DNA of 64,000 nucleotides, from positions 278,014 to 342,013 of the IMG/VR virus record IMGVR_UViG_3300028558_000016. One strand, given 5' to 3'. The notes under the pieces were generated by a model. The model saw nothing but the letters and a program-made list of their open reading frames with translations. It was not told where the DNA came from and did not search any database. Shown in pieces: positions 22,674 through 59,583 of this stretch (positions are counted from its first letter, which is position 1; each line of letters opens with the position of its first letter). Source of the DNA: a virus. The translations under genes were made by a program, and so were the position numbers.

Positions 22674-22694
22674 TAACTTATTGAATATCAATAC
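22674..22694. promoter_or_regulatory. Palindromic operator-like site TTGAATATCAA (variant of TTGATwATCAA)
   Basis: tgtaacttattgaatatcaata is nearly identical to the site at 52334-52357; lies about 40 bp upstream of the promoter box. Confidence 0.45.
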
Positions 22695-22726
22695 TTTAAA
22701 ATGATTGTTTTTATAGGTGGAAATTA

Positions 22727-22740
22727 GTTAGTATATTTAC
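22727..22740 (+). promoter_or_regulatory. Promoter, gTTAGTAtATTTAC class (Bacteroidota -7 TAnnTTTG-like)
   Basis: One of six copies of the TTAGTAnATTTAC motif placed 15-45 nt upstream of a start codon; divergent region opposite the minus-strand block. Confidence 0.5.
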
Positions 22741-22762
22741 ATTGATAACAACCAACCAAAAG

Positions 22763-23296
22763 ATGAATAGAAAACACAAAAAAGGCGATGTCTTAGTTTT
22801 ATCTCCTGACGTCCAAAAAATAAGGAATGAAATCCTCGGCAAATGCGAAGATTTAAGTCCATTGGTAAACAAGATAGTTGAATTTGAAATCTACGATTCA
22901 ATTCACATCAAGAAGCAAAATGAAATTCACATGTGCCGGGTGATCGGACAAAAATTGCCTCCACGAAAAGGCGAAACACCTTTGCCAATAGACATCAGAG
23001 AATTTTTAATTCCTGAGACTGCACTAATCACCGCGAAAGATCATTTAATACACCTCACGAAAACAACAGAGCTCCAAGGCATTTACAAACATCTTATAAA
23101 GAATGCAAACAAGGATTTTGATTACTTGTTGTTTTCGCTGGAAATTTCTCAGCAAGCGCAAGGTGGCGCAAGATCTGGAATTGAAAATTGCGTAGGAAAA
23201 GAAATAGTAGAATTGTCCATGAGCATTTTTCCTAATGCAAGGCTTGGCGACATCATACCAGAAGAATATTACCAAAGATTTAATCAACCAAAATAA
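22763..23296 (+). CDS. Hypothetical protein
   Basis: The track ORF starts at TTG 22742; the first ATG (MNRKHKKG) is at 22763. Confidence 0.45.
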   Translation: MNRKHKKGDVLVLSPDVQKIRNEILGKCEDLSPLVNKIVEFEIYDSIHIKKQNEIHMCRVIGQKLPPRKGETPLPIDIREFLIPETALITAKDHLIHLTKTTELQGIYKHLIKNANKDFDYLLFSLEISQQAQGGARSGIENCVGKEIVELSMSIFPNARLGDIIPEEYYQRFNQPK

Positions 23297-23297
23297 A

Positions 23298-23474
23298 ATG
23301 GCAAAAGCAACAACAGTCGAAAATCAAAACGGAGGATTAGATCTTCTCGTTGAGAAAGATGCTGGTAATGAAATAAGAATTTCTACTGGCGACGAAAAAA
23401 ACAGTTTAAAGTTCTGGCAACACATGAAAGAATTGTGTGAAGGAGCTATTCATGAATTAAAAGACAAAGAATAA
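23298..23474 (+). CDS. Small hypothetical protein (58 aa)
   Basis: ATG at 23298 (MAKATTVENQ) directly after the upstream stop; the track ORF 23235 start overlaps the upstream gene. Confidence 0.35.
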   Translation: MAKATTVENQNGGLDLLVEKDAGNEIRISTGDEKNSLKFWQHMKELCEGAIHELKDKE

Positions 23475-23475
23475 T

Positions 23476-23838
23476 ATGACAATATATCATGGTACGGACA
23501 AAGAATCCGCAGAAAAAATACAACAGGATAAAATCCTGAAAGGCTCAGGAAGTTTTGGGCCTGGAATATGTCTCACACTCGAAAGAGCATTAAACTATTC
23601 AGCAGTCAAATGTGGAAAGCATGGTCCACAAGCAAAAAACATTGGACGAATAGTAATGATCGAAAATATTCCATCTCAAATATTGAACACCGCTTCAAAG
23701 GATGCTCCTGAAGGTTTCACTCTTAACGATGAGTTTGGAAAACCATCAAGAGGATTGCATTTACAAAAGGTGAGAATCCTATCCATCAAAGAAGCACAAT
23801 GCATGATGTCAATGGAACATGAATTTAATAGCAATTAA
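23476..23838 (+). CDS. ART-fold NAD+-binding domain protein resembling the C-lobe of Tpt1/KptA RNA 2'-phosphotransferase
   Basis: MTIYHGTDKESAEKIQQDKILKG...ICLTLE...GRIVMIE parallels the KptA segment [21 protein letters not shown]...HLS...PVILTV; no N-lobe R-H-R-R is seen. Confidence 0.3.
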   Translation: MTIYHGTDKESAEKIQQDKILKGSGSFGPGICLTLERALNYSAVKCGKHGPQAKNIGRIVMIENIPSQILNTASKDAPEGFTLNDEFGKPSRGLHLQKVRILSIKEAQCMMSMEHEFNSN

Positions 23839-23840
23839 AA

Positions 23841-24278
23841 ATGCAAAAATTTGAACGAATAGAAATTTCTGAAGAAAGAGCCAAACAGCTTGGAACAGAT
23901 GAGGTGTGGGTAAATGAAACTCATCAGGTAATTGTTTACAGAGATCCTAAAGAAGCTCCTGAGCTTCCACAAAATTCAAATCCAAAAGATTGGCCAGCGA
24001 TGATTTGGCTATCAATAAAACGTGTTGACAGGGAAGCGATGCATGATTGGAGAGAACTACAGGAAATAAAGAACATGATCGTCGGCCCAGAAAACGAAGC
24101 AGTAGAAGTTTATCCTGCTGAATCAAGATTGGTTGACACTTCAAACCAATATCACCTGTGGGTTTTTGCTGACAAGGAAGTAAGATTTCCATTTGGATTT
24201 ACTTCACGAGGTGTAGCTGATCCTGAACTTGCCGAAAAGATGGGTGCAAAACAAAGACCGTTTAATAAACATAACTAA
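23841..24278 (+). CDS. Hypothetical protein
   Basis: ORF; no motif recognised. Confidence 0.45.
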   Translation: MQKFERIEISEERAKQLGTDEVWVNETHQVIVYRDPKEAPELPQNSNPKDWPAMIWLSIKRVDREAMHDWRELQEIKNMIVGPENEAVEVYPAESRLVDTSNQYHLWVFADKEVRFPFGFTSRGVADPELAEKMGAKQRPFNKHN

Positions 24279-24526
24279 TGAGAGTAAAAACAAAATATGG
24301 AAATGGCACCTTGATTGGTGTTTCCTCCAACGGTGGAATAAATTTAAGTTTTAAAGTATTATTGGACAATACTTTTCCTTCTGATTTGCCTGAAGAAGAA
24401 AAAGAATTAAATGAAATCAAGAATGCTGAAAGCAGGATATACAATTGTTTATCTGTTGATGTATTAACTGATGATGGACAAGTAATAGAACTTGGAAAAG
24501 ATATAATAATTAAATTTGTAAAATGA
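24278..24526 (+). CDS. Hypothetical protein
   Basis: ORF with overlap junction. Confidence 0.4.
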   Translation: MRVKTKYGNGTLIGVSSNGGINLSFKVLLDNTFPSDLPEEEKELNEIKNAESRIYNCLSVDVLTDDGQVIELGKDIIIKFVK

Positions 24527-24855
24527 TGAAAGAGTCAGAAAAATTAAAACAACAATCAGCGGAAGAAGATAACGATCTTATTGCGATGGGTATTGGAAAG
24601 AAAATCATCCGCGAAGAACGAATAGAAAAGTTCGAGGAGAAATGGTTGAAGAAATTTCAATTGAAGTTTGGGGATAACATTAATTGGGTTCCTACAATGT
24701 ATTGTTATAGAATTAATGATAACGGAAAGATAATTGATTTCTATCCAAAGGCCAACAAGCTATTCATCAAAGAAAAGAATAATTGGGTTAAACCAGGATT
24801 AAAATTTTTAGTTAAAATGTATTTCACCGCTGACGAAATCAACGCTGCAATATAA
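24523..24855 (+). CDS. Hypothetical protein
   Basis: ORF with ATGA junction. Confidence 0.4.
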   Translation: MMKESEKLKQQSAEEDNDLIAMGIGKKIIREERIEKFEEKWLKKFQLKFGDNINWVPTMYCYRINDNGKIIDFYPKANKLFIKEKNNWVKPGLKFLVKMYFTADEINAAI

Positions 24856-24914
24856 AGAATTCGCTATTTTTTTGTATTTTTACTTAGTATGCTTACTGAT
24901 AAAAATCCAAAATT

Positions 24915-25235
24915 ATGGCAACACTACTGAAAGAAAAAACGAGGCACGTATTCATAAGTGCAATGAATTTTGTTAGAGTTAGATTATTTGAAGGAACAGA
25001 ATTAAATACGCCTGAGAAAAAAATCAGGGATGAAAAGGAAAAGGAAAAAGCTTTAGTTCATTATGAAAAGATCATGAAGAACATTGGTACATGTCAAAAT
25101 AAATTGCAAATTGATACAGCTCATGTAATGATAGATCAATTTTATTCAAGATATGGAAGACTGTGCCATGATAAGTATTTGAACCTACAAGAGAAGATGA
25201 ATGAACGCAAAGACCAATTATGCATGTACTTTTAA
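24915..25235 (+). CDS. Hypothetical protein
   Basis: ORF; no motif recognised. Confidence 0.4.
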   Translation: MATLLKEKTRHVFISAMNFVRVRLFEGTELNTPEKKIRDEKEKEKALVHYEKIMKNIGTCQNKLQIDTAHVMIDQFYSRYGRLCHDKYLNLQEKMNERKDQLCMYF

Positions 25236-25242
25236 TGTAACT

Positions 25243-25259
25243 GCTTGATTATCAATAAG
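25243..25259. promoter_or_regulatory. Palindromic operator-like site TTGATTATCAA
   Basis: ctgcTTGATTATCAAtaag is the inverted copy of the site at 52391-52409 (18/19 identical). Confidence 0.5.
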
Positions 25260-25261
25260 TT

Positions 25262-25295
25262 ATATTTCCATTATTTAATGGAAATATTTTTATTT
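25262..25295 (+). terminator. Hairpin plus T-run, probable terminator of the upstream gene
   Basis: ATTTCCATTAttTAATGGAAAT perfect inverted repeat followed by atttttattt. Confidence 0.45.
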
Positions 25296-25306
25296 ATGGC
25301 TAATTA

Positions 25307-25319
25307 TTAGTAATTTTAT
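25307..25319 (+). promoter_or_regulatory. Promoter, TTAGTAATTTTAt class
   Basis: Copy of the TTAGTAnATTTAC motif about 20 nt upstream of the PARP gene start. Confidence 0.45.
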
Positions 25320-25339
25320 AGTAAATAAATCAACCAAAT

Positions 25340-26788
25340 ATGGCAACAAAATCATCAACAATGTCCGGCGAGGACATTAAAAAAACAGCGATCGATAAAG
25401 GATTAAAGGTCGCAATACTCGTATGTGTGTCAGATGACAACAATAACAAGTATTTCAATATGTACGAACAAGGAGATGGAACTTACATGGTAATCCGCGG
25501 AAGAGTGGACGTTACCGAAATAATCGAAGGTCCATACCCAATGTCAAAATGGGATGTTCATTACAAGGACAAAACAAAAGCAAACAAAAAACCAAAACCT
25601 TACACTGATCAAACTCATTTGTTCTCTGAACAAAAGAAAAGCGATGGTGCAGGAAAGAAAAAAGAAAAATCATCGAACTTCCATTCAAAGAGAACTGCAA
25701 TGGTAATTGATTTCGTGAAACAACTTCAAAAATTCGCAAATCAATCGGTAGAAGAAAACTACACGGTATCAGCCGCAAACGTTACTAAGAAGCAAGTTGA
25801 TTTCGCTCAACAAACTTTAAATCAAATTAGCGACATGGTTAAGAAAGGCGCAGAGGTTGGTCCAATCAATGACAAACTAATGGAGCTTTATCAAATCATT
25901 CCTCGTCGTATGAAACATGTGAATAACCACCTCATCATTACAGATGAAATGGAAAAAACACTTGGTAAAGTTGAGAAGACCGACAAAGAAAAAATGAAAG
26001 AGGCGAAAGCTAAAACATATTCAATGAAGATTAAATCTGATGCCGAGTTACAAAAAGCGCATGACATGATTGCCGGTGAGCAAGATACTCTTGACGTTAT
26101 GGCAGGTCAGGTTGCTGTTGAAGAACAGGAAAAGAAAGATCACGTTGAAACCCCAGGTGCTAAAAAAGAATACGATTTATTGCACGCAATGAAACTTGAT
26201 ATGGAAGATTGCGATAAGTATGAAATTGCAATGCTTAAGAATATGCTTGATCAAAACGCTAAAGCCGGCCACGAAAAGAATTCAAACCTTTTCAAACGTG
26301 CATATCGCGTTAAGAACGATAGCACTGAAGTTGCTTACAACAATTTCATGGGTAAAGTTAAAAACAAGAAGAAGGAATTATTGTGGCATGGAAGTCGCAA
26401 TGAAAACTGGTGGAGCATTTTCCAACAAGGTTTAGTTCTTCGTCCTACCAATGCAGTAATCACCGGTAAGATGTTTGGTTACGGATTATATTTCGCTGAC
26501 AAGGCGCAAAAATCCATAAACTACTCTTCTTATTCTGGAGCATCACGCTCTTACACAGGGGGTTCATCAAGGAATGCAATTCTTGCGGTATATGAAGTTC
26601 ACCAAGGAGATCAATTGGTAATTAAACGTCATGAGCACTCACACTCACAATTGACTGATAAACAAATGGAAAAACACGGTAAAGATTCTGTGTTCGCTCA
26701 AGGCGGTTATGACCTTGTGAATAACGAATACATTGTGTACAAGCAACAACAATGTACTATAAAATATCTTGTTGAAATTGGGAACTAA
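25340..26788 (+). CDS. Poly(ADP-ribose) polymerase (PARP) catalytic-domain protein with N-terminal WGR-like and helical regions
   Basis: LLWHGSRNENWWSIFQQGL (H-G-S), GKMFGYGLYFADKAQKS (Tyr), and DLVNNEYIVYKQQQCTIKYLVE (catalytic Glu) align one-to-one with the PARP1 LLWHGSR/GIYFAD/LLYNEYIVYD motifs. Confidence 0.75.
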   Translation: MATKSSTMSGEDIKKTAIDKGLKVAILVCVSDDNNNKYFNMYEQGDGTYMVIRGRVDVTEIIEGPYPMSKWDVHYKDKTKANKKPKPYTDQTHLFSEQKKSDGAGKKKEKSSNFHSKRTAMVIDFVKQLQKFANQSVEENYTVSAANVTKKQVDFAQQTLNQISDMVKKGAEVGPINDKLMELYQIIPRRMKHVNNHLIITDEMEKTLGKVEKTDKEKMKEAKAKTYSMKIKSDAELQKAHDMIAGEQDTLDVMAGQVAVEEQEKKDHVETPGAKKEYDLLHAMKLDMEDCDKYEIAMLKNMLDQNAKAGHEKNSNLFKRAYRVKNDSTEVAYNNFMGKVKNKKKELLWHGSRNENWWSIFQQGLVLRPTNAVITGKMFGYGLYFADKAQKSINYSSYSGASRSYTGGSSRNAILAVYEVHQGDQLVIKRHEHSHSQLTDKQMEKHGKDSVFAQGGYDLVNNEYIVYKQQQCTIKYLVEIGN

Positions 26789-27204
26789 TGGAAGAAAACA
26801 AAAACGATATAGAAGAAATCGACGGTGTCCAAGAAGAGAGGGGTGAATTCCCTCCCTTCTTTGGCTTGTTTAGAATGACAAGATTTGAACGTGTACTTCA
26901 TGCTTCCATCATTGGATTAATTGGAGCAGCATTCATCGCATACACTCTGTGGAGCAAAATCATTCCAGGACAAAACCCAACTAAGGAAATGCTACAGATG
27001 AATGATTGGTATGTTATACCATGTTTCGTATTATCTGTTTTGCTTCTGTTGTCTGGATTTCCAGTTGTAATGAAAGACAGAAGTTTTGGAAACATGATGC
27101 TTCAACAATTGCTTAGATGCTTCATGGCGATAATATGGATGGTCTTATATTTTGAAGCAAGTCAAATATTATTCATAATTTTTTACAGACACTTACCAGC
27201 ATGA
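26788..27204 (+). CDS. Membrane protein (3-4 TM helices)
   Basis: ATGA overlap with PARP; several hydrophobic helices. Confidence 0.45.
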   Translation: MEENKNDIEEIDGVQEERGEFPPFFGLFRMTRFERVLHASIIGLIGAAFIAYTLWSKIIPGQNPTKEMLQMNDWYVIPCFVLSVLLLLSGFPVVMKDRSFGNMMLQQLLRCFMAIIWMVLYFEASQILFIIFYRHLPA

Positions 27205-27701
27205 GTAAAGAAAAACATAATCATAAGGAAGGCTTTGAATGTGAAGCTTGCAAAATTGGAATGAAAGCAATGAAAGAAAAAGAAGCTGGATTCCTAAAAA
27301 ATCCAGGTTGGTTCGCTCATTATGTTCCAGATCCTACATATCCAAATGGAATGAATGTGCACACCCACGGTCTTGAAGAAAATTTCAAGCATCTTGATTT
27401 GCAAATATGTCTTGCTATGGATCAACGTATATGCCATCAAATTTTAAACAATGCCATTGGAGAAATAAAGGCAGGAAAGAAATTTGAGGCCGGAGAAAAA
27501 TACGATGATGTCATTGAAGCAAGTCCAGCATACAAAGACCTTAAACTAAAGGTTCTTTTCCTTGAAGCCGAGGAAGGTGGAAGAAAAGTTCTTCGCATGA
27601 TTTTTCCTGAAAAAGATGGAAGTTTTATGGGGCAAATGTCATCCAAACAAATGGAAGGTTGTAAGGTTCCAGAGGATTTAATCTTATATTATACGTTATG
27701 A
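27201..27701 (+). CDS. Hypothetical protein, DUF4262-like
   Basis: GWFAHYVPDP...MNVHTHGLEENFKHLDLQICL resembles the conserved core of an uncharacterised family. Confidence 0.35.
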   Translation: MSKEKHNHKEGFECEACKIGMKAMKEKEAGFLKNPGWFAHYVPDPTYPNGMNVHTHGLEENFKHLDLQICLAMDQRICHQILNNAIGEIKAGKKFEAGEKYDDVIEASPAYKDLKLKVLFLEAEEGGRKVLRMIFPEKDGSFMGQMSSKQMEGCKVPEDLILYYTL

Positions 27702-27931
27702 ATTCACACCTATTGATGACAGAAACTTCCAACATAGATTGGAAAGAAAACAGAGTTATTGACAATGATAAGCTTGAAAAAACGGTTATTCCATGGGAAG
27801 ATAACATTGAGGTAACCAATGGTCTTGATGGAGAAAAGAAGACAATTAAGATGAAAACTGTGTCTTTATATGAACATATTATGTTAAAAGATGGAAAAAA
27901 ATACAAAATATTGCACATGTTATCAAAATAA
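27698..27931 (+). CDS. Hypothetical protein
   Basis: ORF with ATGA junction. Confidence 0.35.
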   Translation: MNSHLLMTETSNIDWKENRVIDNDKLEKTVIPWEDNIEVTNGLDGEKKTIKMKTVSLYEHIMLKDGKKYKILHMLSK

Positions 27932-27995
27932 TGTGTAATTTAGCACTATAATTAAAATTAAAATAATAATATAAACAACAAAAAAAGAAACAATT

Positions 27996-28817: not shown

Positions 28818-28872
28818 GAAAACGGTAAACCCATGGTTGCCATGGTTGGTTGTCCTTTGGGTATTATCGTGA

Positions 28873-28904
28873 AAGGGTGGGAGGAAACTTCCACCCTTTT
28901 AATT
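28873..28904 (+). terminator. Rho-independent terminator
   Basis: aaGGGTGGgaggaaacttCCACCCtttt. Confidence 0.55.
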
Positions 28905-29280: not shown

Positions 29281-29299
29281 CTTATAAGTAGATTATTGG

Positions 29300-29307
29300 T
29301 ATATTTG
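29300..29307 (+). promoter_or_regulatory. Promoter -7 box TATATTTG (TATATTTGCA class), near-leaderless
   Basis: Exact Bacteroidota -7 consensus 7 nt upstream of the ATG at 29315. Confidence 0.45.
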
Positions 29308-29314
29308 CATTATA

Positions 29315-34287: not shown

Positions 34288-36081
34288 ATGAAAAGATCAA
34301 CTAAACATTTCGGAGATTATTCCGATGCGGAGTTAAAAAGCATGAGTCCTGAGCAACTCATTGCTATCATCTTGGAAGGTCAGAACGATGATAACTTCAT
34401 CATCATGACAGACTCTTACAAAATGACTCATCACCTGCTTTATCCTAATGGATTAAGAAGGGTTTACTCATATATGGAACCACGCGGCGGCGAAATGCCT
34501 TACACCGTATTCTTTGGATTGCAGTATTACATCAAAAGGTATCTTGCTGGAAGAAGAATCACCAAAGAGAAAATCGAAGATGCACGTCAAGCAAACATTG
34601 CACACTTTGGATTTGATTGCTTTGATGATACAATGTGGTATCACATATTAAATAAGCACGATGGTAAACTTCCATTGAGAATTAAAGCTATTCCTGAAGG
34701 AACTCCGATCGCTGTTAAGAATATCGTGATGGATATGGAAAACTTAGACCTTGATAATTGTGCAGCATTGACAAACATCACAGAAACATTGTTAATGAAA
34801 ATCTGGGCAACATGTACTGTCGCAGCTTACAATAGAATCATCAAGGAATTAATAACAAAGAATCACGCGATCACTTCAGACCTTCCAGCATTCTTGATTG
34901 ATTACATGCACCATGATTTTGGTTACAGAGGAACTTCATCAGAAGAGACTGCACGCTTAATGGCTGCGGCTGCAATGACAAGTTTTAAAGGAACTGACAC
35001 AATGGGCGGTTTAAGCTTAATCAAGAAATATTATTCTCCTGATGGAGCAACATGGTCTGAATGCATGGCAGGTTTCTCTGTTATTGCGTCTGAACACTCA
35101 GTTGTTTGTTCATACGGTGGAAGACACAAAGAAGCGAAATCATACCTTGACATTATAAACAAGGTTAAGAACCATCCTAAAATTAAGATAGCAAAACCAT
35201 TGAGCGGAGTAATTATTCTATCTTTGGTGTCTGACACTTATAACATCTACAATGTGTCTAAGAAAATTCTTAAACAATTGGAAAAAGAATTTATTGGATG
35301 GACAAACGATAACGGCATTCCAATTAAGATTGTTATTCGTCCTGACTCGGGAGTTCCTGCTAACGTGTTATTTGGATATAACGATGTTGTTAAAGGAATG
35401 GTTGCTGACAAAGATGCTTTAGCAGTAGCACCAATCGACCTTTGCAAAAGAGTTGCAGATGACATGTCGATAACTTTAGAAGAAGGAACAGAGCTTGTGA
35501 CCAAAGGAGTATTTGAAATACTGTTCGATGAATTTGGATCAACAACAAACACTAAAGGTTACAGAGTATTCCATCCACAAATAGGAGTATTACAAGGTGA
35601 TGGCGTTAAGTATACTGTCATCGATGAATTCCATGAGATCATGAAAACGAAAGAATACATGATAGACATCATGATGCTTGTTGTTGGTTCAGGCGGAAAA
35701 AATCTACAGGCTCACGATCGTGATGAACAAAAATGGGCAATCAAAGCAACTGAGGTTGGCATCGATAATGACTCAGTAATGGGTGGTATAGAAACAGTTC
35801 AAATAGAAAAAAATCCAATCACAGATCCTGGAAAGAAATCTAAAAAAGGAGATCTTAAGCTTGGCAAGAAAATGCTTAAGGTAGGCCCTGATTACGATTT
35901 CACAAAAGAATGGATGAACTTTAAAACCTTCCAAGAAGGTGAAGAAGGATTTGATACTGTAACAAACCTTTTAGTTCCTGTATTTGAAATGGGAGAAATC
36001 CTCGTTGAATACGATTTTGAAGAAGTGAGAGCGAACAGTGCGGTAGTATATCCTCAAATTAAAAAAACGGCTTTAGCCTAA
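34288..36081 (+). CDS. nadV: Nicotinamide phosphoribosyltransferase (NadV/NAMPT)
   Basis: FIIMTDSYKMTHHLLYPNGLRRVYSYMEPRGG closely parallels the NAMPT segment [31 protein letters not shown]; 597 aa. Confidence 0.85.
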   Translation: MKRSTKHFGDYSDAELKSMSPEQLIAIILEGQNDDNFIIMTDSYKMTHHLLYPNGLRRVYSYMEPRGGEMPYTVFFGLQYYIKRYLAGRRITKEKIEDARQANIAHFGFDCFDDTMWYHILNKHDGKLPLRIKAIPEGTPIAVKNIVMDMENLDLDNCAALTNITETLLMKIWATCTVAAYNRIIKELITKNHAITSDLPAFLIDYMHHDFGYRGTSSEETARLMAAAAMTSFKGTDTMGGLSLIKKYYSPDGATWSECMAGFSVIASEHSVVCSYGGRHKEAKSYLDIINKVKNHPKIKIAKPLSGVIILSLVSDTYNIYNVSKKILKQLEKEFIGWTNDNGIPIKIVIRPDSGVPANVLFGYNDVVKGMVADKDALAVAPIDLCKRVADDMSITLEEGTELVTKGVFEILFDEFGSTTNTKGYRVFHPQIGVLQGDGVKYTVIDEFHEIMKTKEYMIDIMMLVVGSGGKNLQAHDRDEQKWAIKATEVGIDNDSVMGGIETVQIEKNPITDPGKKSKKGDLKLGKKMLKVGPDYDFTKEWMNFKTFQEGEEGFDTVTNLLVPVFEMGEILVEYDFEEVRANSAVVYPQIKKTALA

Positions 36082-43213: not shown

Positions 43214-44677
43214 ATGGAAAATGATAAAAAATATTGCTTGGTGATGTTTCCTTATCCGTCTGGAGATGGATTGCACATTGGACATTGCTACAACTACTTG
43301 ATAGTTGATAGCTATTGTCGTTGGATGAAGAGAAAAGGAATTGAAGTGTTTCAACCATTTGGTTATGACGCTTTCGGTTTGCCTGCGGAGAATTATGCGA
43401 TCAAGCATAACAGAGATCCAAAAGAAGTCACCTATGAAAACATAGAAAATTTCAGAAGGCAGATGAAGAGATTGGATACTAATTATGAAGAGAAGTTAAT
43501 TACAGCTGATCCATCTTATTTCAAATGGACACAATGGTTGTTCACAAAGATGTTGGAGAAGGGAATTGCTTACAAGAAATTTCATCCAGTAAACTTTTGT
43601 CCATCTTGCGCAACAGTGATTGCCAATGAGCAGGTGAAGGAAGGAAAATGTGAGAGATGCAATTCAGTTGTTGAGATGAAAAACTTGAATCAATGGTTCT
43701 TCAGAATAACAGACTACACAGATAGGTTGATCAAGAACTTGCAATGGTTGGATTATCCCGAGAAAACCAAGAAGCAACAATTACATTGGTTGGAGAAGAT
43801 GAAAGAAAACAAGATCGATTGGTGTGTGTCAAGACAGAGAAAATGGGGATGTCCAATTCCTGTTGAAGGAGAGGAAGATACTTTGGACACATTTGTTGAC
43901 AGCTCATTTTACTACTTGAGATTCTTGACGGATTCTGAAGATGAATTCTTGCCAAGAGAAAAATATAAGCAGGTTGATTTGTACGTCGGAGGAAATGAAC
44001 ATGCTTGCATGCATTTGATTTATGCAAGATTTGTGAACATGTTCTTGTATGACTTGGGAATTGTTGAACAAGAAGAACCGTTCAAGAAGTTGATTCATCA
44101 GGGAATGATCAAGATGAATGGAACAAAGATGTCCAAGTCTATCGGCAATGTTGTTAATCCGGATGGGTATGATCCAGATGAATTGAGATTTTACTTGATG
44201 TTCATTGGACATTATTTTGATGGCGGAGATTGGAACGATCAAAACATTGTTGGCATAAGAAAATTCTTTGCACGATGGGATAAGCTTACTTTTAGAGAAG
44301 CAAAGGAAGGAATTGAATCTATGGATTTGACTGAATTTGAAAACCAGATCGATGGTTATGTGAAAGCTTTCAAGTTCAATAAGGTTGTTAGTTCATTCAT
44401 GGAATTTTACAACAATAATAGCAGCAGAAACTTTGACAAGGAAACCAGATTGAAGTTGAGAAGAATGTTGGAGTGTTTTGCGCCAACAAGATTTTCTAAA
44501 GATGAAAGGCCTCCAGTTGGCATGGATGAATTAAGAAGAAAATCCAATGAGTTGTCTGAGAACGTAAACAAGATTGAAGTAATGGTTAATAAAATTTTTA
44601 AAGATGTTGAACAAAAAGAAAATATCACCGGAATATCCGAGAATACCTCACTTGATGGGGAAGTCAAATCTGTATGA
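43214..44677 (+). CDS. leuS: Leucyl-tRNA synthetase-like class I aaRS catalytic core, apparently lacking the CP1 editing and C-terminal domains
   Basis: PYPSGDGLHIGHCYNY (HIGH) and MNGTKMSKSIGN (KMSKS). Only about 265 aa lie between the two motifs and 487 aa in total, against about 860 aa in bacterial LeuRS. Zinc knuckle CPSC...CERC present. Confidence 0.8.
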   Translation: MENDKKYCLVMFPYPSGDGLHIGHCYNYLIVDSYCRWMKRKGIEVFQPFGYDAFGLPAENYAIKHNRDPKEVTYENIENFRRQMKRLDTNYEEKLITADPSYFKWTQWLFTKMLEKGIAYKKFHPVNFCPSCATVIANEQVKEGKCERCNSVVEMKNLNQWFFRITDYTDRLIKNLQWLDYPEKTKKQQLHWLEKMKENKIDWCVSRQRKWGCPIPVEGEEDTLDTFVDSSFYYLRFLTDSEDEFLPREKYKQVDLYVGGNEHACMHLIYARFVNMFLYDLGIVEQEEPFKKLIHQGMIKMNGTKMSKSIGNVVNPDGYDPDELRFYLMFIGHYFDGGDWNDQNIVGIRKFFARWDKLTFREAKEGIESMDLTEFENQIDGYVKAFKFNKVVSSFMEFYNNNSSRNFDKETRLKLRRMLECFAPTRFSKDERPPVGMDELRRKSNELSENVNKIEVMVNKIFKDVEQKENITGISENTSLDGEVKSV

Positions 44678-52266: not shown

Positions 52267-52339
52267 GGAAAATAAACCTTTATTTTATATATTCAAAATG
52301 ATTTTATTGATTATATGTATTATTTCCAAGACGTTGTAA

Positions 52340-52360
52340 CTTATTGATAATCAATAGATT
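52340..52360. promoter_or_regulatory. Palindromic operator-like site TTGATAATCAA
   Basis: tgtaacttattgataatcaatagatt shares 22 nt with the site at 22674. Confidence 0.5.
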
Positions 52361-52390
52361 GCTTCGATCATTTTCCATCTATAATTTTAA

Positions 52391-52409
52391 CCTATTGATA
52401 ATCAAGCAG
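52391..52409. promoter_or_regulatory. Palindromic operator-like site TTGATAATCAA
   Basis: cctattgataatcaagcag is the inverted copy of the site at 25243. Confidence 0.5.
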
Positions 52410-52461
52410 TTACAAAATTGTTATTAAATATTGATGAAATTATTTTTCCATGTCACAAATA

Positions 52462-52475
52462 GTTAGTAAATTTAC
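52462..52475 (+). promoter_or_regulatory. Promoter, gTTAGTAaATTTAC class
   Basis: Motif copy 45 nt upstream of ATG 52520. Confidence 0.5.
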
Positions 52476-52519: not shown

Positions 52520-53167
52520 ATGTCAACAACTAAAAAACCAGGAGCCGGATTATTAGGCTTAGCGAAAAAAACAGTAAAAACAACTGCTGCTAAAAAAGAC
52601 AACAAAGAAGTAATTACAGTTTCGGATAAAACCGTTTCTGATGCAATTGACACTTATATTAAAAACAAAAAGATCGCCGACGAAGCTGCCGCTGCAATGG
52701 CTGCCGCTTCTGAAATCGTGAAAAGCGAAGGTGGTAAAAAAATCTTCATCGAAGAAATGGAGAAAACCGGTCGCTCAAAAGAATCATTCATTCTTGCCAG
52801 CCAAAATGGAAACAGCTTAATGTATGTTGTTACCGACGCTTACAAACGCGCAAACTTGGATGAAGAACGTGTTGAGTACTTACGCAAAATGTTTGGCGAA
52901 GAAATCATCACAGACAAAAACGAATTCATCGTTAATCCTGAATTAATCGATGAGCATGGTGAAACACTTTGCGAATTAATTAAAAATTGTCCTAAGTTTA
53001 CCGATGAGGTTAAAGAAAGCCTTATCCAATTGAAACAATCGTTCACAATTGCAAAAGGAACTAAAGATAAAATGCGCGACATCGCAAAAGCTTCCAATAC
53101 AACTGTTGAAACAGTGTTTGAAGAAGTTCAACCAACATGTCAAGTGAAAGTTCGCGGTTCAAAATAA
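52520..53167 (+). CDS. Hypothetical protein with basic Lys/Ala-rich N-terminus
   Basis: ORF; N-terminal KKPGAGLLGLAKKTVKTTAAKK. Confidence 0.45.
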   Translation: MSTTKKPGAGLLGLAKKTVKTTAAKKDNKEVITVSDKTVSDAIDTYIKNKKIADEAAAAMAAASEIVKSEGGKKIFIEEMEKTGRSKESFILASQNGNSLMYVVTDAYKRANLDEERVEYLRKMFGEEIITDKNEFIVNPELIDEHGETLCELIKNCPKFTDEVKESLIQLKQSFTIAKGTKDKMRDIAKASNTTVETVFEEVQPTCQVKVRGSK

Positions 53168-53751: not shown

Positions 53752-53826
53752 ATCCGTAGTATGGTGCGTGGGGGAAAGCCCCCGACTCGTGTTATCATTT
53801 TCACGGTTTGAAACATACGGATAGTA

Positions 53827-53856
53827 AAACGGCCTCAATGAGGCCGTTTTTATTTT
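53827..53856 (+). terminator. Rho-independent terminator
   Basis: ACGGCCTCaatGAGGCCGTttttatttt. Confidence 0.7.
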
Positions 53857-53869
53857 ACATGAAAAGTTA
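53856..53869 (+). promoter_or_regulatory. Promoter, gTTAGTAcATTTAC class
   Basis: Motif copy 32 nt upstream of ATG 53901, directly after the terminator. Confidence 0.5.
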
Positions 53870-53900
53870 GTACATTTACCTGAAATCAAAAGATAACAAA

Positions 53901-54176
53901 ATGGCAACTATCATTAAAGCTGACGGCTCAGAAGAAAATCTTGTTTTGGAAAAAACAACCTCATTGAAAACATTGCAAAAAGCAGTTGGAGGTTATATCG
54001 AACTTTTACATACCAAAGATGGAAGATACATGCTCTGCAATGAAGATGGAAAAAGCATGAACCTTTCTCCAAACGAAAAAGCCACAGAGTTATGGGCTGG
54101 GCAAAACGAGATAATTCTCGGAGATGTTGTTGTCTGTGATAGAATTGAACTTGATAAAGGAGAAGGAGATGAATGA
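53901..54176 (+). CDS. Hypothetical protein
   Basis: ORF; no motif recognised. Confidence 0.4.
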   Translation: MATIIKADGSEENLVLEKTTSLKTLQKAVGGYIELLHTKDGRYMLCNEDGKSMNLSPNEKATELWAGQNEIILGDVVVCDRIELDKGEGDE

Positions 54177-54531
54177 AGAATTGACCATAAAGGAAACAAT
54201 CGTTTATGACGTTGACAAACAAAATGCAAGTGTTGTAGCTGGAGAAAAACCGAGGTCGTGGACAACATGGGAAGGCAGACGATTGACTGTTGACCAAATT
54301 GACCACCAACATTTGTCAAACATATATTGGTTCAATGTGCTATTGTATAACAGAGTTTATTTGTTCATTGTTGAAGAACTTCAAAAAAGATTTAATTCAG
54401 TTCTTCTTCCATACAGACCGGATGTCAGATTTGACAACGAGATAAGAAGCCTTGATAAAAAAGGATTCTTATATGAGGGCGGAAGGTTGATCATGTATAA
54501 CGGAGTTGTTATAGGAGAAATTAAAAAATAG
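54169..54531 (+). CDS. Hypothetical protein
   Basis: Internal ATG 54169 preceded by AAGGAG; overlaps the upstream stop by 8 nt. Confidence 0.4.
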   Translation: MNEELTIKETIVYDVDKQNASVVAGEKPRSWTTWEGRRLTVDQIDHQHLSNIYWFNVLLYNRVYLFIVEELQKRFNSVLLPYRPDVRFDNEIRSLDKKGFLYEGGRLIMYNGVVIGEIKK

Positions 54532-54535
54532 TAAA

Positions 54536-55051
54536 ATGGAAAACACATTGGTTCAATTTAATGTTAACGATCACGTTCTTGTGAAACTTCTCGATGATGG
54601 AATTATTGCTTTCATCAAACACTACAATCAATATGCTTTAAAGAAAGAAGACAAGTTGACCATCACTGAATTTGTAAAGAGAGCCGACAAGGATGGATAT
54701 TATGAAATTCAAATGCATGAATTCATGTCAGTGTTTGGAGAGCATGTTTCTAATACAATGGATTTTAGATACTTCGAGCCGAACATTTATTTCAACAAGA
54801 AAGACCTTCATCAAAAAGAAGTGAAAGCTGTTGAAGGATGGAGCGCCCAGAATTATCACGGATTTCAAGTTGATCTTCCCGATGGATATTATGAAGGAGT
54901 TTGGGGTGGCGGAGAAGTTGATATTATCAATTTGAATATTAAAGGAAGAGAATCAACTTATACATTCAAAACTTCCGTTGAAGTAAAATGTACCAATTGT
55001 CCAGTGAAAGTGACAGTCGTTAATAAAAGAGCTTACGTATACGAACCTTAA
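54536..55051 (+). CDS. Hypothetical protein
   Basis: ORF; no motif recognised. Confidence 0.4.
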   Translation: MENTLVQFNVNDHVLVKLLDDGIIAFIKHYNQYALKKEDKLTITEFVKRADKDGYYEIQMHEFMSVFGEHVSNTMDFRYFEPNIYFNKKDLHQKEVKAVEGWSAQNYHGFQVDLPDGYYEGVWGGGEVDIINLNIKGRESTYTFKTSVEVKCTNCPVKVTVVNKRAYVYEP

Positions 55052-55060
55052 AACAAGAAT

Positions 55061-55327
55061 ATGAACAAATGCTTATGTGATGGAAAAGGATGGATTAGAA
55101 TGCCTGGAACAAAGGCCCTGATTTATTGCCCTGACTGTGAAAAGCCAAGGATCCTCAAAAGAATGATAAAATCTGGAACCAAGATAGTAAGCCCTGTGTT
55201 TGGTACAGGAGAAGTGGTGGAAGATGGAAAGGCGGCAAAAAAGACCATAAAAGTGAGGTTTTCCAAGCAGGATAAAGATATTGACCTGGATAGGACAGAG
55301 GTGGCCTACGTCTATGACCAGGCTTGA
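55061..55327 (+). CDS. Small zinc-finger protein
   Basis: CLCDGKG...CPDCEKP cysteine pairs. Confidence 0.4.
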   Translation: MNKCLCDGKGWIRMPGTKALIYCPDCEKPRILKRMIKSGTKIVSPVFGTGEVVEDGKAAKKTIKVRFSKQDKDIDLDRTEVAYVYDQA

Positions 55328-55356
55328 CTTCCGGGCATTTTTTTATGTGGATAAAA

Positions 55357-55370
55357 GTTAGTATATTTGT
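55357..55370 (+). promoter_or_regulatory. Promoter, gTTAGTATATTTGt class (exact TAnnTTTG)
   Basis: Motif copy 20 nt upstream of ATG 55390. Confidence 0.5.
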
Positions 55371-55389
55371 AGTATAAAACCAACCAGAT

Positions 55390-56070
55390 ATGATACAGTA
55401 TAATGAGTTCAGATACATTTTTCCACCACGTGCGGAAAATGCTCTTTCACCTGATGCGTTGAAAGATTACGATAACGGAAAATATATTGCCCAACCAAAA
55501 CTTGATGGCGATTGCATGTTGATATTCACAAATGGAATAGAGACACGCATTATGGATCGTCACAAAAAAGAATTCTTGAAGAACATCAAGATGACTCCAA
55601 CACTTCAAAAGCTTCACAGAGAAACTGACAATGGAACAAAAAATAAATGGATGATCCTTGTTGGTGAGCACATGATCAAATCAAAAAAGAATGCCGAAGG
55701 TAAAACATGGAATGAGAAGTATGTTATTTTTGACATCATTGCTTTTGATGGAATTCAGTTAGTAGGCAAAACATTTCAGGAGAGACAAGAACTTCTCGAT
55801 AAGCTTTTTGGAAAAGAAGAAGTTGCATTGACAAAAACTGGAACATATAAGGATAAATTCCTTTATGCAACGGAAATTGAAGACGTGTTTCGCGTTAAAT
55901 CATTCCGTGATTGTTTTTCTGCTCTTTGGAGCGATTTGACAAAGATTGACATGTACGAAGGTCTCGTTATAAAAAGAGCCGATGCAAAACTTGAAAATGG
56001 AAGCACACAAAAGAACAACATAAATTCACAATTAAAATTCAGAAAGGCCACTTTAAATTATCCACATTAA
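55390..56070 (+). CDS. Minimal ATP-dependent polynucleotide ligase (nucleotidyltransferase domain only)
   Basis: Motif I AQPKLDGDCML (KxDG) and motif IV YEGLVIKRADAK. Confidence 0.5.
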   Translation: MIQYNEFRYIFPPRAENALSPDALKDYDNGKYIAQPKLDGDCMLIFTNGIETRIMDRHKKEFLKNIKMTPTLQKLHRETDNGTKNKWMILVGEHMIKSKKNAEGKTWNEKYVIFDIIAFDGIQLVGKTFQERQELLDKLFGKEEVALTKTGTYKDKFLYATEIEDVFRVKSFRDCFSALWSDLTKIDMYEGLVIKRADAKLENGSTQKNNINSQLKFRKATLNYPH

Positions 56071-56537
56071 TGAGCAAGGAAAAAACAGTAAAGGCACATG
56101 AGACGAAATTAATAACCGCAAGGGAATTATTTTCCATGTCATACGCAACGCGTGAGCTTTATACACCGGACAAAATTGAGTCCATGAAAAAGAAAATAAT
56201 CGAAAGACTCAAGCTGAAAATGTCGAGCGTTGAATTTTTCGAGAATGAAGGAATAATTTTTTATTCATCAACATTCAAGGAAGAAAAAGGTCCAAACAAA
56301 GGAGATCAATTAACCACCATCAATTATCTAAAGGATTATTCCGTAATGAGTGGTGGCGAATTATGGAAATTCGGTTACATCAACAAGAAGACAGGACAAA
56401 TAACTCTTCTTTTTGGCGGTCATTGCGTGGCCAAAGGAAGACAAGAAGCATTTAAGTATTTTGAAATAGCAAAAGTAGTAACAACCAGTAAATTTGAAAA
56501 CTCAGCAGACTTAATTCCGTTTGCTCATAAAGATTAA
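56070..56537 (+). CDS. Hypothetical protein
   Basis: ATGA junction; no motif recognised. Confidence 0.4.
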   Translation: MSKEKTVKAHETKLITARELFSMSYATRELYTPDKIESMKKKIIERLKLKMSSVEFFENEGIIFYSSTFKEEKGPNKGDQLTTINYLKDYSVMSGGELWKFGYINKKTGQITLLFGGHCVAKGRQEAFKYFEIAKVVTTSKFENSADLIPFAHKD

Positions 56538-56541
56538 AACC

Positions 56542-56928
56542 ATGAAAAAACTTTTATTCATTCCGTTAATTTTCCTTTTCGCATGTGGAAAGGAAGTAGT
56601 CCTAAACAAGGATTTCATCACCATCGACAACATTGAAAAGAACGATGATAATTCCTTTGAAATAAGCTTGAAAGCTCCGGCTGAAAGCGGAGGTTCAATG
56701 CCTGATGTCCATTTCACTTCCAAATTCAGATTTCAAGCCGGTGATACTCTTTGGTCGAGATACCAATTGAAAGAGTATAACATTGACAAAATAACTCAAG
56801 CCAATATTGAAAATGCTTCTTTGAAAGATTCTTTACAGAAGATAAACATGCTTCTTAAAAAAGCTGAATTGGAAAATGAGCTTTTAAAAGATCATTACTT
56901 TTCAACATTACAACCAGCATCAAAATAA
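56542..56928 (+). CDS. Lipoprotein
   Basis: MKKLLFIPLIFLFACGKE signal peptide with lipobox Cys; the track start 56521 is upstream of this ATG. Confidence 0.5.
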   Translation: MKKLLFIPLIFLFACGKEVVLNKDFITIDNIEKNDDNSFEISLKAPAESGGSMPDVHFTSKFRFQAGDTLWSRYQLKEYNIDKITQANIENASLKDSLQKINMLLKKAELENELLKDHYFSTLQPASK

Positions 56929-56929
56929 T

Positions 56930-57148
56930 ATGAAACATAAAATCAAATCAATCAAAGAAAAAGTTCCTCAATTAACTACATTGCCAGACGGCCTTTATAA
57001 TGGAGTTTGGGGCGGATATGTTATAGAAGTTAAGTACAAAGACAAAACTTTTGAATTAGAAACAGAAGAAGGGGTAAGAGGTATGGACATAAAAGTTGTT
57101 GTTGAAGTTAAAGATGGTGTTCCATCATTCGATGAAGTCAATTCTTAA
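56930..57148 (+). CDS. Hypothetical protein
   Basis: ORF; no motif recognised. Confidence 0.35.
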   Translation: MKHKIKSIKEKVPQLTTLPDGLYNGVWGGYVIEVKYKDKTFELETEEGVRGMDIKVVVEVKDGVPSFDEVNS

Positions 57149-57159
57149 TTCTTAAAAAC

Positions 57160-57840
57160 ATGTTTGATCAATTACAAGAATTTTTATATGTCATTGTAGC
57201 TTGCATTTCAGCCTACATCATTTATCAAGTATATCAGTTTAGAAAACTCCTTTTATTAGCAGGAGTTTTCGCTGTTTTAGGATATATCGGTTACTTGATA
57301 TATGGTCAACGAATGTTGACAAATGAAGTGGCACAAAAGACCACTGAAATAAAAGAGAAATCGAATGAACTCCAACAAATAAAAAAGACGCTTGCGGAAG
57401 AAGATTTTAATAACACAAGATCGCTTGGTTATCGTTTAAACAATCCTGGAAACATACGCAAATCTTCGACAACATTTAAAGGCGAGGTGGAAAGTCCTGA
57501 AGCTTTCAAGCAATTCAAATCTATGAAGTATGGATTTAGAGCCATGACATCCTTGCTCCACACCTACATAAATAGCGGTTTCAATACAGTGGAAACAATA
57601 TTAAACAGGTATGCGCCATCGAGCGATGGAAATAATCCTGTGAATTATACAAAGTCAGTTATTAAATTAGCCAATGTTCGTCCAGACCAGGCTCTATCAA
57701 CTCCTGATTTTAAAAATGGAAATATGCTCAACATCATGTATGCTATGACGAGAGTTGAACAAGGATATTCTCCTAACATTCATGATCTCCATGAGGGTTA
57801 CATGATGTATGTGAGAGAAATTAATTTACAAGTAGAATAA
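57160..57840 (+). CDS. Membrane-anchored protein with conserved NNPGNIR motif
   Basis: Two N-terminal TM helices then a globular domain (GYRLNNPGNIRKS). Confidence 0.4.
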   Translation: MFDQLQEFLYVIVACISAYIIYQVYQFRKLLLLAGVFAVLGYIGYLIYGQRMLTNEVAQKTTEIKEKSNELQQIKKTLAEEDFNNTRSLGYRLNNPGNIRKSSTTFKGEVESPEAFKQFKSMKYGFRAMTSLLHTYINSGFNTVETILNRYAPSSDGNNPVNYTKSVIKLANVRPDQALSTPDFKNGNMLNIMYAMTRVEQGYSPNIHDLHEGYMMYVREINLQVE

Positions 57841-58160
57841 TGGAAAGAATAATAATACCAGAAAAAGATTTCAACAAGCTTACAAAAGATGAGCTCATGA
57901 ATTGTTTTGCATTAGTAACACATGATGGCTCAGACCAATATGTTTCAGGATGGAAAGTAATCATTGATGATTGCATGCAAGAAGCACGTGAAACAAAATC
58001 TAACGCAGAAGCCACAAAATTTATAGCTGCTCGAACAAATTTACAGTTGCTTGATAAGTACTATGAGCAAAATTCAGATCTTAATGGAAATAATCACGAA
58101 TTGTTATTGGCCAAAATAATTAAAGGAATTCCTAAACTGTACGTAATACAAATCGACTAA
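57840..58160 (+). CDS. Hypothetical protein
   Basis: ATGA junction. Confidence 0.4.
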   Translation: MERIIIPEKDFNKLTKDELMNCFALVTHDGSDQYVSGWKVIIDDCMQEARETKSNAEATKFIAARTNLQLLDKYYEQNSDLNGNNHELLLAKIIKGIPKLYVIQID

Positions 58161-59246
58161 ATGAAAATAGAAGCCGGAAGTAAAGCAAAAATCTATTGCC
58201 TATCTGACAAACCAGAAGGTGAAATAATTTCAGTGACGGACACCACAGCAGTAATTAAGATTGACCGTGGAGTTCTAACTGTTGACATGGATGACATCGT
58301 GGAAGGCGATGAATTCCTAAAAGTATTAAACTACAGATCCATAGAGGAAGAAAAGAATGAGCCTGAACCTAACAGTCCAGAAAAATTCGCAGATGACATG
58401 ATGGCAACTGTACAAGCCTTGAAGGAAGATGACAAAGACATTTATAAGTTGTTCATGCACTTCATAAGAACTTCTGACACTGTAAAGAAAGATGGAATAA
58501 TATTTCCTCTGCCATGCATATTTGAAATGCCATCAGGAAAAACCCTCGAAGGACTCGAAGATAAAATTAACACAAAGGCCACGATCGCGATGGCTGGATT
58601 GGCTTTACCTGTTCCACAGGTTTATGCTTCTGCTTCAGGCATAATTAAAAAGGAAAATCCGAAGGAAATAATATTTGCCACATTCATTGAAAATAAATTG
58701 TCTGAAGGAAAAATAGATCCAAAATATTACAGAGTTCTTTGCATATTCAGGATGAAAAGAAATAAGTGGATGTATGGCGTCATGGGATATAACACAAAAG
58801 AAGATCTCGTAAATCAAGAGCCTGATTGGAAGAACGAAGCATGGATCGAAAAGATGAAAGCTCTTCTTGGTTCAGGTGGTGCAATTCCTATTCCAGAAAA
58901 AGTTGGAACTGCGTATGGCAACAAGATCGACATAAAGATTTGGAGAGAGAACAGCCAAGGTTATTTTTATGAAGGAGATGTCGTTCTGGAAAAGCTCGAT
59001 AAGAAGACTCAGAAGTATGTAAAGGAAAATAACCTCGATCTTAAATTCAGTGATCCGGATAACAGAACTAAGATAATGGATTTCTTCAAGAGCAAAGACA
59101 TGACACTTGATTTCATGGACACTGGGACTGGTTCATTCGTTAACCTTATGGTATCAAACAAAGGATTCATGTTCATGGACAGAAGAAGTAAAACAAGAGC
59201 AATCCTCGAAGCAATAGAAGCAGTAGCAAACGAAAAGAAAAAGTAA
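58161..59246 (+). CDS. Hypothetical protein (361 aa)
   Basis: ORF; no motif recognised. Confidence 0.45.
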   Translation: MKIEAGSKAKIYCLSDKPEGEIISVTDTTAVIKIDRGVLTVDMDDIVEGDEFLKVLNYRSIEEEKNEPEPNSPEKFADDMMATVQALKEDDKDIYKLFMHFIRTSDTVKKDGIIFPLPCIFEMPSGKTLEGLEDKINTKATIAMAGLALPVPQVYASASGIIKKENPKEIIFATFIENKLSEGKIDPKYYRVLCIFRMKRNKWMYGVMGYNTKEDLVNQEPDWKNEAWIEKMKALLGSGGAIPIPEKVGTAYGNKIDIKIWRENSQGYFYEGDVVLEKLDKKTQKYVKENNLDLKFSDPDNRTKIMDFFKSKDMTLDFMDTGTGSFVNLMVSNKGFMFMDRRSKTRAILEAIEAVANEKKK

Positions 59247-59247
59247 T

Positions 59248-59562
59248 ATGAAAACAATAGTAGTAAAAGTTGAAGTAAAAACCGACAGGGTACAGGACTT
59301 CATAGATGCAACAATTGAAAGTCAAACAGCAACAACAAAAGAACCTCGTTGTTTGTCTTACACAATTTTGCAAGACGAAAAAGAGAAACACAAATTCACT
59401 TTGGTGGAAACTTACAAGAACGATGCGGCCATAGAAGAACACAAGGCAACACCTCATTTTTTAAAGTGGAGAGAAGTGGTTCAGGAAATGATGGCATGTC
59501 CGAGAGTGAGTTCTAAACACGATTTCATTGATTGGAAGAACAGCTCAGTAGAAACACTGTAA
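59248..59562 (+). CDS. ABM-domain (antibiotic biosynthesis monooxygenase-like) protein
   Basis: CLSYTILQDE...YKNDAAIEEHKATPHFLKW follows the ABM/Dabb pattern. Confidence 0.45.
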   Translation: MKTIVVKVEVKTDRVQDFIDATIESQTATTKEPRCLSYTILQDEKEKHKFTLVETYKNDAAIEEHKATPHFLKWREVVQEMMACPRVSSKHDFIDWKNSSVETL

Positions 59563-59563
59563 C

Positions 59564-59583
59564 TTGTTGATTATCAATAGATT
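59564..59583. promoter_or_regulatory. Palindromic operator-like site TTGATTATCAA
   Basis: cttgTTGATTATCAAtagatt, about 40 bp upstream of the promoter box. Confidence 0.5.

Follow-up and report, generated by a model that had tools for sequence, protein, structure and literature searches.

Palindromic sites at the heads of transcription units

The stretch analysed here, called the window throughout, comprises 64,000 nucleotides (nt) of the virus record IMGVR_UViG_3300028558_000016 (positions 278,014 to 342,013) and is part of a 482,156-bp megaphage contig. The element in question is a palindrome with the core TTGATWATCAA that recurs between the genes of the window. Scanning the window located exact cores at 25245, 52344, 52395 and 59567, four where 0.20 would be expected, and none of 100 shuffled versions of the window attained that number. 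A fifth core, TTGAATATCAA at 22681, has a single mismatch to TTGATWATCAA. A preliminary description made from the letters alone had reported five intergenic copies, and our scan agrees with it. When both strands are read, the full unit spans 25 bp and is palindromic, TAA-N4-TTGATWATCAA-N4-TTA, commonly bearing a TGTAAC arm, and three copies fit it perfectly and two with one mismatch. Allowing up to one mismatch, this 25-mer is found five times against 0.01 expected, a count that again no shuffle (0/100) attained. The oriented block TGTAACTnnTTGAwwATCAATA is common to all five copies, and every one of them is intergenic, lying in an AT-rich gap (GC content 0.18–0.26) at the start of a transcription unit.

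Site 1 (22674–22698, TAACTTATTGAATATCAATACTTTA, with its TGTAAC arm at 22672–22677) sits in a divergent gap between a 3′-5′ exonuclease operon on the minus strand and the operon beginning at 22763 on the plus strand. Site 2 (25238–25262, TAACTGCTTGATTATCAATAAGTTA) is a perfect match to the 25-mer and begins 2 nt past the stop codon of gene 24915–25235, upstream of a gene for a PARP-domain protein. Sites 3 and 4 share one divergent region, 51 bp apart, between a PrsW-protease gene (minus) and the gene at 52520 (plus); site 3 (52337–52361, TAACTTATTGATAATCAATAGATTG) is the promoter-distal copy, while site 4 (52388–52412, TAACCTATTGATAATCAAGCAGTTA) is promoter-proximal and has its GTTACA arm toward the 52520 promoter. 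Site 5 (59560–59584, TAACTTGTTGATTATCAATAGATTA) overlaps the stop codon of the ABM-domain gene 59248–59562 and lies upstream of the gene at 59656. The near-identical paired flanks reported previously proved roughly right, in that the 22-nt pair (22672–22693 and 52335–52356) agrees at 20 of 22 positions rather than in full, and the inverted pair (25236–25257 and 52393–52414) consists of exact inverted 22-mers. A repeat search of the window found no iterons around the sites, and an origin of replication in the window is thus unsupported.

Promoter boxes downstream of the sites

Downstream of each of the five palindromes we found the promoter box TTAGTAnATTTAC, as the preliminary description had stated, with zero or one mismatch at 22728, 52463 and 59619 and with two mismatches at 25308. 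The distance from site centre to the TA of the −7 box is 46, 61, 118, 67 and 51 bp for sites 1 to 5, respectively. All four −7 boxes are on the plus strand: 22728–22740 (TTAGTATATTTAC, reading TAtaTTTA, with a final A where the consensus has G) for gene 22763–23296, 25308–25320 (TTAGTAATTTTAT) for the PARP-domain gene 25340–26788, 52463–52475 (TTAGTAAATTTAC) for gene 52520–53167, and 59619–59631 (TTAGTAATTTTAC) for gene 59656–60270. Aligned, these promoters read TTTTT, about 19 nt, TTAGTAnnTTTAC, an A/C-rich leader of 25–45 nt and the ATG, with no Shine-Dalgarno sequence. The Bacteroidota sigma-A consensus is TTTG at −33 and TAnnTTTG at −7, the latter some 19–21 bp beyond a −33 element that is T-rich or has TTG, and the window promoters carry TTAGTAnnTTT(G/A) with TTTTT about 19 bp upstream; the box is the usual sigma-A −7 element of Bacteroidota, TAnnTTTG, extended by a phage-typical TTAG. 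The TAnnTTTG boxes, the lack of Shine-Dalgarno sequences and CAACCAA leaders point to a probable Bacteroidota host.

The recurrent box had also been taken as the signature of a regulon, and this part of the earlier account did not hold. The window has at least 11 promoters of the box type, four with a palindrome 45–120 bp upstream and at least seven that are palindrome-free. The latter include a box at 53867–53879 on the plus strand (TTAGTACATTTAC), preceded by a terminator hairpin at 53830–53851; TTAGTATATTTG or TATATTTG occurs in other AT-rich gaps at about 20245 (minus strand), 29300, 48480, 55350 and 60345, and five intergenic promoters other than the palindrome-linked ones have the canonical TAtaTTTG. 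Because TAnnTTTG-type boxes also stand in palindrome-free gaps, we regard the box as the general promoter of phage and host, which marks no regulon. The end of the −7 box does differ between the two groups, being TTTA(C/T) in all four palindrome-linked promoters and TTTG in five of the seven palindrome-free ones, a small sample, and the TTTA ending at palindrome-linked promoters fits dependence on an upstream factor.

Several smaller features accompany these promoters. A TGGAAA(A/T)T element stands just upstream of the TTAGTA box in the window (22718–22727 and 59608–59617) and in five related phage loci (L236, L237 and L241–L243, see below), at a distance that varies from 8 to 11 nt among palindrome-linked promoters. 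A sigma-54 promoter (GG-N10-GC) with an enhancer was considered and rejected because the spacing from TGG to the box varies (TGGAAA to TAGTA, 8 versus 11 nt); the GC at −12 is also absent. Between site 2 and the PARP promoter lies a plus-strand hairpin with a T-run (25262–25292, ATATTTCCATTA / TAATGGAAATAT) that folds at −10.3 kcal/mol with a z-score of −3.9, and both this hairpin and that at 53830–53851 are terminator-like and separate from the palindrome motif. At 25262–25320 and 53830–53879 the T-run of the terminator also serves the promoter that follows as its T-rich −33 element, giving compact terminator-promoter cassettes. On the minus strand, in the interval from the palindrome to the start codon of the exonuclease gene (22620–22672), the blocks GAAACCATT and TAATAAAAC..TAAAC are conserved in the window, L236 and L237; neither resembles TAnnTTTG, and they may form a non-canonical, perhaps phage-specific, promoter of the leftward replication operon.

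Conservation in related megaphages

INPHARED gave no nucleotide match in near or distant mode. A search of IMG/VR for relatives of the 52520 and 59656 proteins yielded none, and relatives were found instead via a protein database and contig look-ups. Homologs of the exonuclease are located on contigs of 438, 374, 349, 289 and 258 kb. The megaphage relatives keep three of the four site regions, with centre-to-−7 distances that change little. In the exonuclease divergent region the distances are 46, 46 and 45 bp in the window, L236 and L237 (exonucleases 83% and 79% identical), and the palindrome is among the few conserved blocks in the alignment of the three. For the promoter-proximal site at 52520 they are 67 bp in the window and 67, 68, 67 and 57 bp in L240–L243, whose homologs of the 52520 protein are 87–62% identical; the sole outlier is shorter by 10 bp, or one helical turn. 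The site upstream of 59656 lies at 51 bp in the window and at 51, 55 and 45 bp in L241 (three mismatches to the 25-mer), L242 and L243. The distal copy at 52337 is retained only in the closest relative, L240. The copy upstream of the PARP gene is absent in L236 and L237, the two closest relatives, and the regulon that had been proposed to include this gene is not supported as a conserved one. Two more distant relatives, L238 and L239 (exonucleases 59% and 52% identical), have no site within 20 kb. One viral contig from the distribution scans below, L005 (IMGVR_UViG_3300037010_002556), contains both the palindrome and the TTAGTAATTTTAC box, and since it comes from the same metagenome (JGI 3300037010) as L241 it probably represents a further piece of some related megaphage.

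Distribution across Bacteroidota phages, elements and genomes

We scanned IMG/VR and one genome per GTDB species for the exact 21-mer GTAACTNNTTGATWATCAATA. It is present in at least 115 IMG/VR stretches, on contigs of 5–364 kb with unrelated flanks, and in at least 120 bacterial genome stretches. Among the matches listed, 70 of the 80 titled genome records (~88%) are Bacteroidota, spread over Bacteroidales, Flavobacteriales, Cytophagales, Chitinophagales, Saprospiraceae and Sphingobacteriales, and the site is intergenic in 108 of 117 viral (92%) and 106 of 123 genome matches (86%), to be set against a baseline in which a crude open reading frame (ORF) call assigns about 76% of the genome-locus DNA to coding sequence. 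The 1.9 Mb of fetched loci hold 75 further TTGATWATCAA cores where about 5 would be expected from base composition. The flanks of these further cores were not forced by the search, and over 139 half-sites they show T68 A79 A66 at −7 to −5, or YAA-N4-TTGAT. All-against-all clustering of neighbouring ORFs in the fetched loci found no protein family common to the site neighbourhoods, and across 173 non-redundant copies no nucleotide conservation was seen beyond position 0 of the site. The palindrome is not private to this phage; it belongs to a phylum-wide Bacteroidota family of sites.

The settings of the site vary. In at least ten viral contigs (L017, L022, L038, L047, L052, L063, L070, L079, L089 and L109) it lies between element-specific iterons, in L093 between the 3′ end of a transfer-messenger RNA (tmRNA) gene and an integrase gene, and in L160 some 280 bp ahead of an array of 12 tRNAs. 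In L165 it adjoins a sequence that reads as a tRNA 3′ fragment, where Rfam calls no tRNA. In L186 it is directly inside the terminal inverted repeat TAACGTGAACTACGGATTAC at one end of a ~260-bp repeat (1375–1636) resembling a miniature inverted-repeat transposable element (MITE). This TAACGTGAACTACGGATTAC-ended repeat breaks many contigs of one Bernardetiaceae metagenome-assembled genome, fragmenting the assembly, and is seen at contig ends in L132, L134, L147, L154, L157, L190, L213, L217, L221, L225, L232, L234 and L235.

A chromosomal setting comparable with that in the phage is found in Chitinophagales-type genomes, where the site lies upstream of rplM, the gene for ribosomal protein L13. 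In eight rplM loci its centre is 68–70 bp upstream of the rplM −7 box, the GTTACA arm always faces the promoter, and the intervening sequence has diverged. The phage site at 52388–52412 matches these host sites in both orientation and spacing. In three Flavobacteriaceae the site is 49–50 bp upstream of another promoter. The Chitinophagales gap between rplM and a divergent amidohydrolase gene also holds, in L144, L149, L179, L184, L214 and L233, a second, degenerate and inverted copy of the site about 50 bp off.

A candidate binder

Given that the site occurs at unrelated loci, with no common neighbour family and no homolog of the HTH_8 (Fis-family helix-turn-helix) protein of the window in its surroundings, a binder that is encoded by the host and conserved in the phylum is the economical explanation. 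We put at about even odds the reading that the palindromes are sites of such a Bacteroidota host protein, most likely a classical IHF/HU-family homodimer, and that they serve as an architectural upstream element. The half-site WATCAA-N4-TTA corresponds to the E. coli IHF consensus WATCAANNNNTTR, which nine of the ten window half-sites match exactly, and the unbiased logo also puts TAA at the position of the TTR element. In TTGATWATCAA exactly 9 bp separate the two AA/TT steps. A spacing of about 9 bp is what HU prefers between DNA distortions, accommodating the same kinked structure, and in the IHF-H′ complex the nearer kink sits 6 bp from T44 of the TTR element (PMC5829579); from this geometry the kink would fall in the AA step of ATCAA, the kink positions being taken from the literature. 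By this analogy the palindrome could be an ideal site of a homodimeric IHF-like protein. The two 5-bp half-sites are 6 bp apart centre to centre, and would therefore be awkward for a helix-turn-helix (HTH) dimer. Circumstantially, the contexts are also those typical of IHF: a tmRNA/integrase junction, iterons, a MITE end, and the regions upstream of rplM and the phage promoters. There is no HU/IHF gene in the window, and one of the 235 motif-bearing loci has one, an incidental HU. Bacteroidota encode one to three classical HU/IHF proteins, among them the Bacteroides host factor BHFa, which E. coli IHF replaces in the in-vitro IntDOT reaction.

In the mechanism that we propose, each half-site would be read by one subunit, and the two beta-ribbon arms would kink the DNA at the AA/TT steps, with the outer TTA/TAA (often TGTAAC) elements clamped onto the body of the protein and a sharp bend as the result. 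This bend would lie about 45–70 bp (once ~120 bp) upstream of sigma-A-type promoters with a sub-consensus −7 box (TTTA for TTTG), where it may let upstream DNA or a partner reach RNA polymerase or may set the geometry of divergent promoters. As an architectural element placed upstream, the site would then increase the activity of promoters that head transcription units, or make that activity conditional, and the phage would be copying an arrangement also used by host housekeeping promoters such as rplM. Taken further, the pattern suggests, though with somewhat less confidence than we place in the binder, an undescribed, sequence-specific architectural system common to the phylum in which an IHF/HU homodimer acts on a symmetric double-IHF consensus, (T)GTAAC-N3-TTGATWATCAA-N3-GTTAC(A). 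Such a system would be used at set distances ahead of housekeeping promoters (rplM) and recruited by phages of diverse lineages, a MITE, integrative elements and iteron-type origins, with the megaphage copying the rplM-type arrangement and the motif marking Bacteroidota hosts.

A number of points weigh against an IHF/HU-type architectural element. E. coli IHF sites are asymmetric, unlike the palindrome, and we found no precedent for a perfectly palindromic double IHF consensus and, in the literature searched, no Bacteroidota IHF/HU protein with such specificity. TGTAAC is a more specific arm than the TTR called for by the IHF consensus, and it resembles the GTnAC of EbfC/YbaB. The helical phase of the site-promoter spacings is mixed, with 46, 57 and 67–70 bp in one class and 51, 55, 61 and 118 bp also present. 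The 66–70 bp peak of the global survey stems largely from one orthologous locus, the rplM region, and the counts from the IMG/VR and genome scans are lower bounds given with no chance expectation. Lastly, in the Chitinophagales gap between rplM and the divergent amidohydrolase gene, the −7 box of the latter borders directly on the opposite edge of the site. This abutment would fit repression there, and because of it a single site may aid one promoter and hinder the other.

Alternative explanations

The strongest alternative, which we consider possible but clearly less probable than an IHF/HU homodimer, is that the site belongs to a different global regulator or nucleoid protein of the host, either a homodimeric or tetrameric factor or a YbaB/EbfC-type protein on the GTnAC arms, working as a class-I-like activator or as a repressor. 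All of the evidence for a host factor applies to it equally. The arm TGTAAC / GTTACA contains GTnAC, the reported EbfC site, and the spacings of 46, 57 and 67–70 bp are about one helical turn apart, resembling those of class-I activators. On the other side, every one of the five window copies has GTAAC in one arm, but the G (32%) and C (39%) of this arm are weakly conserved among the unbiased half-sites, versus T68 A79 A66 for the TAA, while the TTGATWATCAA core is best conserved. With half-sites 6 bp apart, this core suits minor-groove arms 9 bp apart over HTH dimers, and both halves match the IHF consensus.

A binding site for a dimeric regulator was already put forward in the preliminary description, which named as candidates a phage protein, the HTH_8 product of 12300–12731 on the minus strand (PF02954, E = 2e-11), or a host factor. 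The palindrome would in the former case be the operator of a phage-specific regulon, and we judge this improbable. Two observations favour it, as the HTH_8 gene is conserved in L236 and L237 and the sites are conserved inside the phage clade. Against these stand the presence of the identical site in the promoters of chromosomal housekeeping genes as well as in hundreds of unrelated phages, the lack of any HTH_8 homolog in the 235 motif-bearing loci (~2–15 kb each) and of any protein family common to the site surroundings, and a sequence that, by inspection, we take to be unlike Fis or NtrC consensus sites. The earlier proposal is thus partly supported. It was right in kind, in that a symmetric, intergenic site of the protein-binding type lies upstream of promoters and would bind a dimer, and a host factor is the favoured one of its two candidates; it was wrong in owner, as the HTH_8 protein has no homolog in the loci and the site occurs in unrelated phages and chromosomes.

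A role as nucleic-acid structure (a hairpin, terminator or processing site in RNA, or a cruciform in DNA) or as a boundary of recombination or of a cassette is the least probable of all, for although the copies at 25238 and 59560 directly follow or overlap stop codons, two of the five fold at about −8 kcal/mol and spacers are identical within copy pairs, the spacers are non-complementary in the 173 non-redundant copies (position 7 T 28% and position 8 A 55%, opposite a fixed TA), the folds are weak (three of five no better than shuffles) and Rfam has no match, which makes this a duplex DNA site and no hairpin, and the promoter distances are fixed in hosts and phages, which makes a recombination role unlikely.

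Other features of the window

Beyond the site regions, the window carries eight tRNA genes between 42576 and 46519, all for Leu (tag, taa, caa, gag) or Ser (gga, tga, gct, cga) and therefore all long-variable-arm tRNAs, which flank a gene for a 487-amino-acid (aa) class I aminoacyl-tRNA synthetase-like protein (43214–44677). Three consecutive large genes at 1287–6950 code for proteins with collagen triple-helix repeats (463, 745 and 674 aa), which are probably fibre or appendage proteins. The window also encodes the PARP catalytic-domain protein (25340–26788) and a NAMPT-like protein (34288–36081), and the same block in the relatives (L236, 1–8057) adds a NUDIX gene, a CTP_transf_like (NMNAT-type) protein and a PolyA_pol-family gene. 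The combination of PARP, NAMPT-like, NUDIX and NMNAT-type genes looks like a module related to nicotinamide adenine dinucleotide (NAD).

Significance

Bacteroidota transcription signals differ from the E. coli model, and the motif family appears to be undescribed in the literature searched, where a query with the exact core string returned nothing relevant and no paper was found that describes the motif or gives a recognition sequence for the HU/IHF proteins of Bacteroidota. For the phage, the change in reading is from a private regulon to host-factor-dependent promoters that would head at least four transcription units. Confirmation of the binder would make this the first defined recognition sequence of a nucleoid-associated or architectural protein in Bacteroidota, and would explain a recurrent control-region element of Bacteroidota phages, plasmid-like elements, MITEs and integrative elements. 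Promoter engineering in Bacteroides and Flavobacterium would then also gain a portable upstream element, and there would be a short DNA signature by which uncultured phages, megaphages included, could be assigned to Bacteroidota hosts.

Comparison with known systems

The upstream activating sites of Fis at the promoters of rRNA, tRNA and ribosomal-protein genes are similar in placement, being upstream of strong housekeeping promoters (here rplM and the tRNA array) and exploited by phages, but the palindrome sequence is unrelated to the Fis consensus, and we know of no Fis protein in Bacteroidota. FNR/CRP boxes (TTGAT-N4-ATCAA) share the pentamers TTGAT and ATCAA and a placement ahead of promoters in which the distances differ by roughly a helical turn. 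They differ in that the spacer of the palindrome is 1 bp, a single W in all copies, and not 4, which puts the half-sites on different helix faces, and in that TAA/TTA arms extend the palindrome to 25 bp. The FNR/CRP arrangement, either TTGAT-N4-ATCAA or 5-N6-5, was rejected on the single-W spacer.

Also comparable is BHFa, a chromosomal IHF/HU-family protein of Bacteroides that acts as host factor for CTnDOT integration and is a case of a Bacteroidota protein of this family being exploited by a mobile element. That BHFa itself might bind the palindrome is our conjecture.

The nearest likeness is to the IHF sites of Proteobacteria, such as those of lambda attP H′, oriC, promoter-upstream regions and the vicinity of insertion sequence and transposon ends. 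The half-sites match WATCAANNNNTTR, ATCAA-N4-TTA emerges from the unbiased logo, a kink spacing of 9 bp is implied, and the contexts correspond in the attachment-site junction, the iteron regions, the transposon end and the promoter-upstream positions. In contrast to those sites, the Bacteroidota site has an extra preference for a TGTAAC arm, is largely confined to Bacteroidota, and has no A-tract in a non-consensus half as E. coli IHF sites do, since both of its halves carry the consensus. It is also perfectly symmetric, with two overlapping inverted copies of the consensus that share the central W, and this symmetry implies a homodimer rather than the alpha/beta heterodimer.

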